Origin: an uncultured Christensenellaceae bacterium
Lineage (GTDB): Bacteria; Bacillota; Clostridia; Christensenellales; CAG-314
NCBI GenBank assembly: GCA_910587795.1
Contig: CAJUNH010000002.1
Coordinates: 67,346 to 131,345 of the forward strand
Direction: 5' to 3'
Length of the DNA stretch: 64,000 nt
Shown one piece after another: positions 23,985 to 32,437 of the stretch. The notes beneath the pieces were generated by a model that was given only the letters and a program-made list of their open reading frames with translations, ran no database searches and was not told where the DNA came from. Made by a program: the position numbers and the translations under genes. Position 1 is the stretch's first letter. Each line of letters starts with the position of its first letter.

Positions 23985-24587
23985 TTATGCGGTAAAATCG
24001 TACGTAAACACAACCTGATAGCCGCTGCGTTCAAAACTTATTTCCACCGACTGTATTGCGTCTTCTGTGTACTTTGCAACAACCCTGCCGTTTTGTCCTT
24101 CGGTGTCGCTGCCCATTAACTTGGACAAGTCTTTTACGTTTGCGGAAAATACTCCGTCCTTATCTTCAACTTTATCCAAGTTGGATTTATTAAAGTTAAG
24201 AGCAACCGCCGTTATTTGAGTCAAATCCAAGTTGGGTTTTGCTCCGTCCTGCGTTTCCACCTGCGTTACGCCGTCAACCGACGTAATTTTCATAGAACCG
24301 CTGTACGTGGTTATTCTTTCATCGGGAACTTCGTACGAGCCGTTATCGGTTATAATTTCGTTTAAAACCTGATAGCTATACTGTACCGATACGGAGTCGT
24401 CCGCTTGTTTTACCGCGGTGTACGTTCCTTTTAGTTCTACATTGCCGTCAGTAACGTTAACCGTAAGTTTTACGTTTTCGTGAGGATCTTTACAAAGGTC
24501 GTCCAAGCGGCCGAACATTTTGTTACAGCCGCACAGCGACAGGCAAACAATCAACGCCAAAACAATAAGTATTATTTTCTTTTTCAT
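23985..24587 (-). CDS. Small lipoprotein (200 aa), function unknown; paralog of the 177-aa lipoprotein at 1880..2413
   Basis: AGGAGG RBS and lipobox LCGC. Its ATG overlaps the TGA of the 2617-aa gene (ATGA at 24584..24587). Confidence 0.8.
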   Translation of the reverse strand: MKKKIILIVLALIVCLSLCGCNKMFGRLDDLCKDPHENVKLTVNVTDGNVELKGTYTAVKQADDSVSVQYSYQVLNEIITDNGSYEVPDERITTYSGSMKITSVDGVTQVETQDGAKPNLDLTQITAVALNFNKSNLDKVEDKDGVFSANVKDLSKLMGSDTEGQNGRVVAKYTEDAIQSVEISFERSGYQVVFTYDFTA

Positions 24588-30500: not shown

Positions 30501-32437
30501 TCCTTTACGTATTGACGGATAAGCACGGTAATACCGCACATATTGGGGCATGCCATACTCGTTCCGCTAAGCTTATCGTAACCGCCGCCCGGAACAGCAG
30601 AATAAATGTTTCCGCCGTGAGCGGTGATTTCCGGTTTAAGAGACAAGTCCGGGTTCGGTCCCCAGCTGGAAAAGTCGCTCATAAAGGGACCGGCTTGGTT
30701 TGAATAAGAAAATTCCAAAGTGCCTATGCCTTCGTTTTCTTTACCTTTGTTTACCGCGGCAAGTATATCGCCGTCGTCTTTGCCGATAGATACTACGGGT
30801 ATTGTAATATCGTTACCAACCGTCATAATTATATCGCCGAAGACGTTGTTGTAGATAATGCACGCCACCGCGCCGTTTTCCGCGGCAAAACGTGCTTTTT
30901 CCTCAAAGGAAATATCTCCGCGCTTTACCAAAGCTATTTTGCCCTTTACGTCCGTGCCGATATAGTTTGCGGCATATCCGTAACCGGGAACGGTGACGTA
31001 ATCAAAAGTCTTTGTTACGCCCTCGGTTATACCCATCATTTCAAAGAAGTTGTATTCTTTTGCGCTTTGGTTAAACGATTCGAGGAAAAACACCTCTTGA
31101 TTACCGTTAGCCAACATATATTTGTCTTTGTTGCCGTTTATGGAAGCAACCGACATTGCCGCATTATACGTAGACGGCGCGCCTACCGTTGCGGAGTCGG
31201 GGTTGCGCGTTTTGTTGGTATTGCCGAATTCGCTGCCGTACGCGCTGCTGTAATCGTTGGATGCGGCAACGACAAGCGAAATGCCCGCTTCTTCGATACT
31301 GTCGTAAATTTCGTTTTTGCGAACTTCGTCCACCTCGCGGGTAAATCCGCAAGACGTACCTAAGCTCATGTTAATTGCGTCTACGCCCAACTTAACGCAG
31401 TCTTCCAGCGCCGCCAAAATATCGCCGTCGTCCGCGCCGTCTTTGTAGTCGCTGAACACTTTCATAATTGCAAGCTGCGCGTCCACCGCCACGCCCGTAA
31501 TAACGTCGTCCTTACCGCCTATGATACCCGCAACGTGAGTGCCGTGTTCGCTGGAAAAAGGCATAACGTCGGGGTCTTTATCTGCGTAATCGTACCCCCA
31601 AGCAATTTTATTGTTGGTGATGTTTCCGTAGTATACTTCGCGCGGTTCTACGGTATTATCGTAGCCGTACGCAACGGTTTGGGGCAATATGCGCGCAATA
31701 TCGTTACGGCCGTATAAAGGCTGCTCCACCTTATGCGTAGTAAACGCCGTGTGCGTATAGTCGCAGCCCGTATCCAAAACGGCGACAATAGTTCCCCTAC
31801 CGGTGTAATCGACGTCGCTGCTGTTGAATATACCCGTATCGTATACGTTTACGGGGTTTTCCGTAGCTACCGCAGGCATGTAAGTGTTGGACACGATAAT
31901 ACGGCTTACTTCGTCGAATTGCATAATTGCATTTAAGTTTTCGTAAGTAGTGGTTACGTAAACGCCGTCGGCAATAGCCGTATAGCCGTACTTAACCGCC
32001 GAAACCAAACCCGCTTTAACCAGCTTGTCCGCCGCCTTGTTTTGACGTTCGGTCATACTCTTTGCCAAACTCTTTGCCGAAGAACTTTGCAGGTAATCTT
32101 CCAAAGTTGAGCTGCCGCTGTGTTTTTCGTTATATTCGTTTACCAAAGAATTTTCCGAAAAAGTAATAATAGCGTTGACTTTACCGCTAAGGCGGTAATC
32201 CGCAATATTTTTAATTAAATCTTTGTTTATGGATTTAATCATATCTTTACGGAGATCGGCAATAGCCTTATCCTTGTCGATAAACGGCGAAAACGTATCC
32301 GTAGCAGTTCCCGCGCTGAGATTACCGCTGCTGTCCGTAGAATAGGACGCGGTAAACGCCGCGCAAACGACGGAGAGTGCCATCACCACGGCTAATATCC
32401 AAACTACTATAGAAAAACGAATTTTCTTTTTTGTCAT
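24584..32437 (-). CDS. Giant cell-envelope subtilisin-family (S8) protease, 2617 aa. Domain order: propeptide, S8 catalytic domain with PA-domain insert, Ig-like (Big_2-type) domains, about 1000 aa of BspA-type leucine-rich repeats, helical repeats, C-terminal TM anchor
   Basis: Catalytic motifs VAVLDTGCDYTH (Asp), HGTHVAGIIGG (His), SGTSMACPNMCG (Ser). PA-like segment KGKIALVKRGDISFEEKARFAAENGA. Big_2-like segments TWTSSNPDVVAV and KWSSSNERVATVDENG. Dozens of ..I(G/P)..AF..C..L..(V/I).. LRR units. C-terminus VAGILSLLAIVAVALKNLL. Confidence 0.9.
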   Translation of the reverse strand: MTKKKIRFSIVVWILAVVMALSVVCAAFTASYSTDSSGNLSAGTATDTFSPFIDKDKAIADLRKDMIKSINKDLIKNIADYRLSGKVNAIITFSENSLVNEYNEKHSGSSTLEDYLQSSSAKSLAKSMTERQNKAADKLVKAGLVSAVKYGYTAIADGVYVTTTYENLNAIMQFDEVSRIIVSNTYMPAVATENPVNVYDTGIFNSSDVDYTGRGTIVAVLDTGCDYTHTAFTTHKVEQPLYGRNDIARILPQTVAYGYDNTVEPREVYYGNITNNKIAWGYDYADKDPDVMPFSSEHGTHVAGIIGGKDDVITGVAVDAQLAIMKVFSDYKDGADDGDILAALEDCVKLGVDAINMSLGTSCGFTREVDEVRKNEIYDSIEEAGISLVVAASNDYSSAYGSEFGNTNKTRNPDSATVGAPSTYNAAMSVASINGNKDKYMLANGNQEVFFLESFNQSAKEYNFFEMMGITEGVTKTFDYVTVPGYGYAANYIGTDVKGKIALVKRGDISFEEKARFAAENGAVACIIYNNVFGDIIMTVGNDITIPVVSIGKDDGDILAAVNKGKENEGIGTLEFSYSNQAGPFMSDFSSWGPNPDLSLKPEITAHGGNIYSAVPGGGYDKLSGTSMACPNMCGITVLIRQYVKENFPSLTTTCEVRDLVNQLCMSTATIALDRKGNPYSPRKQGAGIADILKATTTDAYLYVDGMGKTKLELGDDPQRNGVYTMSVNLKNISDKSVSYTIGNLAMTESVSSSDKDYVAEMAYMLDVSADYNVKGGTLNGGVVTVPAGQTATVTATITLSGADKRYINGNFENGMYVEGFLTFTNTDDKGVSLNAPFLAFYGDWADAPIFDEDYYMVETEAHNGAIDEEDKIKADYYATTPLGKYYYDYIIPLGSYMYDMSPDDVAIPATAEHAAISYYRDCISGVYSVFTGLLRGAKEMNIEIVDTATGKTVWQKTEYNAYKAHFNGAQMPYVCNIDLDMVDFKTNEVFGDNNSHYQVTMSAKMDWDNGERNVNDTYKFSFYIDYQAPLIVDSKFSVEYDRLGDKDKDKYFVELTVYDNHYAMSLRPVVVYSYVDENGQTKQTFSSLAENPLPVYQEKRDSKTVVKVDITDYLDVIRSSNLPQGITFYVDDYAMNSAIYYIPFPETQCNTLGFKTEDSSQGVPTIELKKGETFDLTTVMYDTADENREIDRFYLKNLTWTSSNPDVVAVSGGQIEALQNNEGIVISVKGETWDKAKTVRVNIVGENAADGSSSQNTELENIEFISYDTVFAYNGDIDRSEIGRTGGKGFFDGNYTLNFYPGEQVKLNYLIEPWNLDPARYELKWSSSNERVATVDENGVVKGLAEGRTRVSLNIIVDGRQSILQARCTVNIKNEFVIENRELVAYKGLGGVVEIPDDEGILYIGSFAFCHYNLVNDKDVGDDYDFDDKKEPLRNNTVTKVIIPAGVEEIRKFAFYNCEVLEEVVLGEDCDKIYEYAFYNNVRLININLDRVKVISDYAFYGCRVLQNPGFGINFESVNVLGNYSFANCVQLTSANLTDLRRSGEGAFYGCSHLTTVVLGERARLAPQMFAASSLREITVYSDTIPDKAFYNCTRLTKVTVVNDLTYLGTDAFSGCVQLNSFTFKKGCEYIGSAAFYGCAKLSAIVLPDGITSFGDNVFGNCASLTTLILNANTVINEVGALMFNALGGTNVAFSAANSNHYSVKDGILFSKDGTELILALTNKTFDGGIYVLPENVKVIADGAFSGNRNLNVLDASVSQLEKIGNSAFAYCANLTAVKLGDNAVAIDDRAFTEAVNLKNIDLSKCPSIGEFAFYNTALTAVTVGDGATVGYRAFSVGKSTVLNATYTSKLINLYLGKNAKIGDYAFANTAVATVEMPADGGVVIGQYAFFNSSSLVRIDLTKATELSAYSFAMCSKLASVDLGNIAVIPEGCFSGCASLVNVTADNAEKVEHDAFAQFELVSGGQQFVYEGPAIVIIILPKAIEIGEYAFYGCMDLETVSLPEVETIGEGAFEFCEKLQNITFGSKLSVINDGVFYGCSSLNLAEFDFDNITKVGKMSFLGTQVPETLTLPKVESIDVQAFCEAELVQTSQGLQFVPVKNPHLKTVNAPELRFLLENAFYGSGALQQFNAPKLEEIGSMVFVDSLITEFEVTDNLRFVDYGAFTYAEKFETFYATVNGQKVFDVTFSNVMLDKGVLYTSTNKGYMLSSYPAAKTDAEYAVPEGVVRIEFLAAYGNKNITKIVLPQTLTNIGNMSFYSCDKLATVEFRSYYAPVLEGTMSGELDILPGSDLKDRFPGFDKLYKYDYYYYTQLLQLLANPDYKPSFGVPYPLYYATFVDFVTSKKASNLQAVLPVNSEGYDSALYTAYFNTITKSQFTPMGGYAIAFINAVNNLPDVVDRFAAKSMGDAITAYNALQRHTDELAAVDKSVVDRYQTALSAYNVDVAINAINKLVGIDSTDRSINLVEKANSAYNVLSAEEKDLITNYDKLVKANADLEKAIKERNEELEAERKKAAQAAIDAIDAIGEVSSAQSCFDRLSQALNVFNALTAEEKAYVTNSDKLQAAVTSYNTLVKTINTVNAEVTKTATNVTLQVAGILSLLAIVAVALKNLLGGKL

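Follow-up and report, generated by a model that had tools for sequence, protein, structure and literature searches.

The 2617-residue protein encoded by an intact open reading frame (ORF) at positions 24584-32437 (minus strand) of the window analysed here, a 64,000-nucleotide stretch of contig CAJUNH010000002.1 from an uncultured Christensenellaceae bacterium (assembly GCA_910587795.1), represents a real variant of the cell-envelope proteinase (CEP)/Opp system, both widespread and uncharacterised. In this variant, an S8-family subtilase is fused to an arm of BspA-type leucine-rich repeats (LRRs) and is encoded in one operon with an Opp-type ATP-binding cassette (ABC) importer. We consider it probable, at roughly 70%, that the operon forms a lactocepin/Opp-like feeding system, whose protease harvests protein from outside the cell as food.

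The strongest functional clue for the protease, which the original prediction had overlooked, is its conserved operon with the Opp-type importer. The protease gene is the first of eight closely packed genes on the minus strand, which are separated by gaps of 5-19 nt and one gap of 110 nt (6-19 nt between the importer genes) and are probably co-transcribed (Table 1). A Flg_new lipoprotein, the large binding protein and the Opp genes accompany the protease in 29 of 32 related loci, the other three being truncated contigs. In closer relatives the protease comes first, while more distant ones (47-54% identity) have the importer genes first and the protease last; as the linkage is present in both gene orders, the association has survived rearrangement. 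The Flg_new lipoprotein is always found either between protease and binding protein or at the head of the importer genes, and the additional 200-aa lipoprotein occurs only in the closest relatives (L003-L005). The permuted loci (L023-L028, L031 and L032) read Flg_new lipoprotein, binding protein, OppBCDF, protease, with a second Flg_new gene upstream in L024-L026. In L031 (CP091735.1), a “complete” metagenome-assembled genome (MAG), the coding sequences of protease, binding protein and OppB are split up into numerous short frames, which looks like the result of long-read indel errors rather than decay. The operon of the window is surrounded by chromosomal housekeeping genes (UvrC, AddAB, FtsH) and is hence not located on any evident mobile element.

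Protease and binding protein are also gained and lost together. Among 82 species genomes of the window's GTDB family, 42 encode both, six the protease only, none the binding protein only and 34 neither; for the 47 species of the window's genus, the corresponding numbers are 30, zero, zero and 17. Moreover, the 1.55-Mb, 94%-complete genome encodes no Peptidase_S8 other than this protease, and HisG, TrpB and LeuC were not found in it by searches that matched all 14 control genomes. The sole subtilase, the missing pathway genes and the operon together support a feeding system. Here, the N-terminal signal peptide serves to export the protease, and one C-terminal helix fixes it in the membrane; from the membrane outward, helical rod, cap, LRR solenoid, two Ig-like domains, Fn3-like domains and the catalytic head bearing the PA domain follow each other. 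At the cell surface, it could cut extracellular protein of the gut lumen into oligopeptides, which the neighbouring lipid-anchored family-5 binding protein would capture and the OppBCDF-type ABC importer would take up, thereby feeding a reduced-genome anaerobe that lacks marker genes of His, Trp and Leu synthesis. Small-genome, hard-to-culture gut Clostridia are prevalent, and their way of life is poorly understood. The operon, in which their only subtilase is joined to a dedicated importer, would explain the amino-acid source of these bacteria, and the feeding system would mark them as protein degraders of the gut.

The lactococcal CEP, consisting of protease, Fn-like A/B domains, a helical H domain and a wall anchor, supplies peptides to amino-acid auxotrophs (PMC7783315). 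PrtP/lactocepin resembles the protein described here in the order of its parts: the S8 domain with PA insert is followed by Fn3-like domains, a long middle region rich in beta structure, a helical domain and finally the anchor to the cell (PMC7783315). In lactic acid bacteria (LAB), it provides auxotrophs with peptides for an Opp-type ABC importer; here, the pairing with an importer is very strong at the genomic level, and peptides are the presumed cargo. Differences concern the middle region, where about 31 BspA-type repeats and two Big_2 domains stand in place of the Fn-like B domain of PrtP, and the anchor, which is a C-terminal transmembrane (TM) helix instead of the sortase/LPXTG or W domain of LAB. 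In contrast to the LAB system, no PrtM-like maturase adjoins the protease, and the two neighbouring lipoproteins have no match to peptidyl-prolyl isomerases; protease and importer share one conserved operon with two extra lipoproteins; and the binding protein (867 aa) and the permeases (~460 aa) are oversized. The former features an N-terminal extension of about 400 aa, its SBP_bac_5 match starting only at residue ~408, and the transporter matches of the OppB- and OppC-like proteins begin only at residue ~205-225. Some relatives (L010-L017) have an OppB of normal size (~340 aa). A repeat solenoid in place of the Fn-like B domain bears on how CEPs meet their substrates.

Several observations weigh against the feeding system. 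The best NCBIfam matches of the importer are Opp4A/B/C and OppD/F/Dpp, but every subunit scores below the curated cut-offs and nickel and opine transporters, which belong to the same superfamily, match as well, so that the peptide cargo is deduced from the context. The co-occurrence within the genus is supported by a Fisher p of 4e-13, which is uncorrected for phylogeny and thus ignores shared ancestry. In six genomes of the family, the protease occurs as multiple paralogues that have no linked binding protein, implying that the protease can work without this importer. A PrtM/PrsA-like maturase was absent from the scanned operon and flanking genes, the rest of the genome not having been searched for PrsA. 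Three missing marker genes in a 94%-complete MAG are suggestive, but no proof, of auxotrophy. Finally, the poor conservation of the repeat surfaces makes a single conserved ligand unlikely.

Opp systems also import signalling peptides in Firmicutes, as in the Opp-dependent pheromone uptake of Bacillus and Enterococcus. The protease could hence process secreted pro-peptides and the Opp-type system import the mature signal, and the conserved accessory lipoproteins of the operon, which have no assigned function, would leave room for such a role. We nevertheless regard this as highly improbable: neither a precursor-peptide gene nor an RRNPP-type regulator was seen in the operon, the protease belongs to the broad-specificity CEP branch and carries a huge extracellular scaffold, some genera encode eight or more paralogues, and the missing amino-acid pathway genes provide a simpler reason for the system.

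The assignment of the catalytic head to the CEP branch is well supported. The S8 catalytic triad had been described as intact, and all three motifs, VAVLDTGCDYTH (D222), HGTHVAGIIGG (H301) and SGTSMACPNMCG (S627), were recovered; D222, H301, the oxyanion residue N394 and S627 do not vary in any of the 61 aligned orthologues. While these intact residues are an observation, the proteolytic activity itself is presumed from them. PF00082 matches at residues 213-688 with an E-value of 1.4e-43 (149.7 bits against a cut-off of 21.8), and the domain shows 70-83% identity to the query across 60 orthologues. Pfam also places a PA domain inside it, as anticipated from the sequence alone, and an fn3_5 domain behind it, an arrangement that is characteristic of the CEP/C5a-peptidase branch. 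Consistently, the likeness to cell-envelope proteinases and C5a peptidases proposed by the original prediction proved right, since the top matches in the PDB are 7edd, SpyCEP and CEP, with the chains 7edd, 5xya, 6vjb and 1xf1 aligning to residues 206-887 (E 1e-57 to 9e-69). The protein does not belong to NCBIfam NF040553 (SGO_0316/SGO_0317 LPXTG-anchored serine peptidase), for which it reaches 273 bits against a cut-off of 1400, the match covering only positions 280-902 of the 1486-position profile. In front of the catalytic domain, residues 34-205 have no Pfam match and are, by analogy with subtilase biology, a putative propeptide. N-termini equivalent to the hydrophobic segment of the window's protein are present in its orthologues.

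The closest solved relatives of the head, C5a peptidases (ScpA/ScpB) and SpyCEP/chemokine protease C, share the S8-PA-Fn3 core and provide the nearest structures for residues 206-887. This likeness, the matches of the repeat array to adhesins with BspA-type repeats, PcpA and TpLRR, and the origin of the carriers from animal guts would also suit a host-directed colonisation factor, which cleaves chemokines, complement, immunoglobulin A (IgA) or mucins, uses the array as adhesin and is accompanied by the importer incidentally or as a scavenger of products. However, these virulence proteases differ in being LPXTG-anchored, ~1100-1650 aa long and specific for narrow host substrates, without LRRs and without an importer operon, and the score of the protein described here lies far under the cut-off of the streptococcal peptidase family model. 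Importer linkage and strict co-inheritance hold across gut species from mouse, roe deer, sheep and rabbit, the enzyme is the sole subtilase in a genome without the amino-acid pathway genes, and its repeat surfaces are neither conserved across species nor diversified between strains. A role in colonisation therefore appears unlikely to us.

As for the array, the repeat type and its presence were recognised correctly from the sequence, but it measures about 880 aa and not 1000 aa. Pfam reports eight LRR_5 stretches (E 3.4e-120), and 31 units were counted by their (A/S)F motif between residues 1396 and 2275, with a spacing of mostly 20-26 aa and wider gaps at hairpin insertions and module boundaries. 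The array thus displays the tandem units of ~22-23 aa and the solenoid fold of BspA-type proteins (PF13306). It is composed of three modules (~1396-1695, 1700-2185 and 2190-2275), each opened by a “DG(I/V)L(F/Y)..” hairpin. An AlphaFold model of residues 1190-2340, built from 27 orthologues, comprises two beta-sandwich domains and, behind them, a long repeat solenoid into which four beta-hairpins are inserted; the structure prediction that had been recommended for this region is confident, with a mean predicted local distance difference test score (pLDDT) of 89 and a predicted template modelling score of 0.65. The two Big_2-like domains foreseen in front of the repeats correspond to two Pfam Big_2 stretches at ~1200-1375, where the pLDDT is mostly 62-93 per 10-residue block and lower in the first domain. 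In a Foldseek search with the array model, the best PDB matches were the BspA-type structures 4fs7, 4gt6, 4cp6 (PcpA) and 4fd0, after which long receptor solenoids such as TLR9 and FLS2 are ranked. The same repeat type, both in sequence and in predicted fold, is found in Tannerella BspA, Treponema TpLRR/LrrA, PcpA and the Bacteroides/Faecalibacterium structural genomics entries 4fs7 and 4gt6, all of which differ in being stand-alone binders or adhesins with 200-450 structured residues, whereas the array of ~880 aa described here is joined to a protease. The genome as a whole contains about seven separate ORFs with LRR_5 repeats.

Across 60 orthologues, the array has 28-52% identity to the query and few gaps. 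The core positions of the repeats are conserved (Phe 0.98, the preceding Ala 0.70, Leu at +6 0.71), while the surface positions show 0.16-0.27 identity across species, from which it follows that the scaffold is retained and the surfaces drift between species. Hypervariability between strains, which had been proposed as a check, was rejected: variable sites amount to 8.0 per 1000 in the array and 8.1 per 1000 in the catalytic domain, so that there is no excess over the latter, and nine full-length strain variants differ at 1-9 of 2617 residues with unchanged array length. This pattern agrees with a rigid arm, or with a binding surface varying from species to species, but not with a fast arms race at the strain level. 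Target-directed proteolysis, which had been suggested from the fusion of LRRs and protease, is possible but remains unproven, given that the surfaces are only 16-27% identical across species and the array is not hypervariable between strains. Most likely, the array is a rigid arm that additionally binds substrate or particles and has species-specific surfaces.

The array could act as a rigid spacer only, comparable to the B domain of the lactococcal CEP, which would keep the catalytic head outside the peptidoglycan and bind no ligand, an option that is compatible with the feeding model and that we hold to be possible but, on balance, doubtful. It would agree with the position of the array between membrane anchor and protease head, with the maintained number of units and length, the few gaps and the drifting surface residues, and with an organism that has a wall to span; models of PrtP propose the A/B domains as spacer (PMC7783315). 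On the other hand, a solenoid of ~880 aa plus a helical rod exceeds the need of known CEP spacers, and those LRR_5 proteins whose structures have been solved are free-standing proteins of the cell surface. In four other genera of the family, S8-PA-Fn-LRR paralogues (ORFs of 2000-2800 aa) number up to at least eight in genomes of 1.6-2.2 Mb (genomes G079, G080, G081, G062 and G064; loci L033-L044). We examined 12 lipoprotein-type paralogues from three of these genera, most of which feature an N-terminal lipobox. In ten of the 12, Big_2 pair, helical rod and C-terminal TM helix are all missing, and ten end directly after the repeat cap, without a C-terminal anchor. Being attached by the lipobox and ending right after the cap, these paralogues expose the array at their free end, where it cannot serve as a stalk. 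An Opp cassette or linked binding protein was not found within the 1-4 kb flanks examined for the paralogues.

An extension of the feeding system, which we put forward as speculative and rather unlikely, would make the LRR arm a species-specific capture device and the operons “protein utilisation loci”, in which a protease at the surface, an accessory lipoprotein and an importer of their own are each directed at certain proteins or glycoproteins. If true, such targets would be mucus or IgA of the host, particles from the diet or the surfaces of other bacteria, and the genera with at least eight lipoprotein-anchored S8-LRR paralogues would harbour repertoires of specificities, comparable to what Bacteroidota possess in their polysaccharide utilisation loci.

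Behind the array, a conserved cap domain precedes the helical rod; in most lipoprotein-type paralogues, this domain forms the C-terminus. All three helical A(Y/F)N(A/V)L... repeats noted before were found in the rod. Most orthologues have two of them, and the third (residues ~2497-2587, window 24677-24950, minus strand) is an insertion that, among 27 aligned sequences, L013 alone has in common with the window's protein; most orthologues instead feature a short Pro/Glu-rich linker at this place. In a model of residues 2255-2617 (pLDDT 83), the cap is followed by a helical bundle (2382-2504, pLDDT 95-98), long helices and the TM helix. An assignment of the helical repeats to a known domain, such as the HID domain of Shr, was rejected as there was neither a Pfam match nor a significant fold match; the top hits of the rod in the PDB fold search were spectrin repeats with an E-value of 0.026.

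The single C-terminal TM helix (~2593-2609, followed by the tail KNLLGGKL) was confirmed, and a TM helix lies within the last 60 residues in 92 of 121 orthologues. In the others, as far as sequences were inspected, it is located further in, with a longer acidic tail behind it. Together with the N-terminal signal peptide, this anchor makes the protease a type I protein with the catalytic head farthest from the membrane. As stated before, the protease carries no LPXTG motif or S-layer-type anchor, and it thereby departs from the wall anchoring typical of the CEP/C5a branch (LPXTG/sortase, S-layer-type or W domain). No sortase was found in the genome, which accounts for the lack of LPXTG, although the genome encodes two penicillin-binding proteins. 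The latter also led us to reject the explanation that the TM anchor reflects a wall-less, Mollicutes-like host.

A chimeric assembly, named earlier as the result that would refute the fusion, can be dismissed. The full-length protein is present on many independent contigs, and its architecture is kept down to 27-36% identity in the middle region. The exact protein was recorded on 13 contigs, and eight near-identical full-length variants on up to 20 further contigs (NCBI, ENA, JGI and Logan assemblies). The best 120 matches of a whole-length search have 2497-2642 aa, 92-100% query coverage, 50-83% identity and the same Pfam set. When the family-specific middle region (residues 880-1400) served as query in a profile-free scan against 1.84 billion cluster representatives, the best 150 representatives (50% clustering) included about 50 proteins of 2270-2870 aa matching at the same position. 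Three representatives with 27-36% middle-region identity all contain S8, PA and LRR_5, two of them also fn3_5 and the third Big_2 (Pfam). The combination of S8 and LRR_5, which had not been recognised as a described architecture, is accordingly not rare but the usual layout within a large family: length and architecture are shared by more than 120 orthologue clusters at 90% identity, and 48 of 82 species of the GTDB family carry it. In a class-wide sample, the protease was present in seven of 300 genomes, over four further families. Databases name the orthologues only “leucine-rich repeat protein” or “hypothetical protein”, and targeted literature searches gave no description of an S8-LRR_5 protease or its operon, nor any for CAG-552 together with a protease.

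Carrier records are labelled as Christensenellaceae, Clostridia, Anaeroplasmataceae, Bacilli and even Prevotella. The labels Anaeroplasmataceae, Anaeroplasma bactoclasticum, Bacilli, Acholeplasmatales or Prevotella belong to L010, L012, L014-L017, L020, L021, L024-L026 and L032. Penicillin-binding proteins were found in nine of ten carrier genomes tested, including four genomes behind five loci labelled Anaeroplasmataceae, Anaeroplasma bactoclasticum or Bacilli. The carrier without them is G086 (L024), labelled Acholeplasmatales, whereas the other five of the six so-labelled loci tested have them. The Mollicutes-type labels are consequently unreliable, and we claim no transfer between classes. 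A cultured carrier, Pumilibacter intestinalis CLA-AA-M10, encodes a 2555-aa orthologue (L022:9911-17578) followed by the same lipoprotein and binding-protein genes, which makes the feeding idea directly testable. Its description notes small cells, and few carbohydrate-active enzymes for the cultured Pumilibacteraceae (bioRxiv 10.1101/2022.03.07.483007), a family other than that of the window. A placement of the window itself in the Pumilibacteraceae is unsupported, since the 82 genomes of its GTDB family do not include the Pumilibacter locus.

Table 1. Features of the protease and its operon (window positions; residues refer to the protease).
Feature	Residues	Window positions	Strand	Basis or remark
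Terminator-like hairpin of upstream tRNA-synthetase gene		32795-32820		upstream of promoter-like site
Best promoter-like site TTTACA-17-TAAAAT, extended -10 TG		32564-32592	-	consensus match; ~125 nt upstream of protease start
N-terminal signal peptide/hydrophobic segment MTKKKIRFSIVVWILAVVMALSVVCAAFTASYS	1-33	32339-32437	-	hydrophobic window 5-23
Propeptide-like region before catalytic domain	34-205	31823-32338	-	32-55% conserved
S8 catalytic domain	206-700	30338-31822	-	Pfam, PDB homology, conserved triad
PA domain inserted in S8 domain	484-559	30761-30988	-	Pfam
fn3_5 (724-838, Pfam) and additional family-specific beta-rich region	701-1190	28868-30337	-	PDB homology stops at ~887
Two Big_2-type beta-sandwich domains	1191-1395	28253-28867	-	Pfam, AlphaFold strands
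~31 BspA-type (LRR_5) repeats	1396-2275	25613-28252	-	Pfam, repeat count, AlphaFold
Conserved post-repeat cap domain (SYYAPxLEG ... YxNF ... GYDS)	2276-2381	25295-25612	-	orthologue alignment, model
Helical rod	2382-2587	24677-25294	-	three A(Y/F)NxL...EEK...N..KL repeats
C-terminal TM anchor (~2593-2609), short basic tail and stop	2588-2617	24584-24676	-	
200-aa lipoprotein, no family match		23985-24587	-	start overlaps protease stop by 4 nt (ATGA)
376-aa lipoprotein with Listeria-Bacteroides repeat (Flg_new)		22744-23874	-	
867-aa lipoprotein, family-5 (Opp/Dpp/Nik-type) substrate-binding protein		20135-22738	-	best match Opp4A, below cut-off
OppB-like permease, 465 aa		18718-20115	-	
OppC-like permease, 462 aa		17319-18707	-	
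OppD-like ATPase, 439 aa		15993-17312	-	split ABC match
OppF-like ATPase		14938-15975	-	

Promoter-like sites in the region upstream of the protease are not more numerous than in shuffled sequences. Directly 3' of OppF (window 2413-14692, minus strand), three further large surface proteins are predicted: one of 968 aa without family assignment, a homologue of which is also located behind OppF in L002, one of 1484 aa with four Flg_new repeats and a weak match to the Shr-like HID, and one of 1384 aa with Flg_new. Elsewhere in the window (41401-44898, minus strand), a second ABC system of unusual component sizes comprises a 625-aa permease, matched by BPD_transp_1 in two stretches, and a 529-aa ATPase that contains a MalK OB domain, and is adjoined by a GH2 glycosidase (39311-41053).

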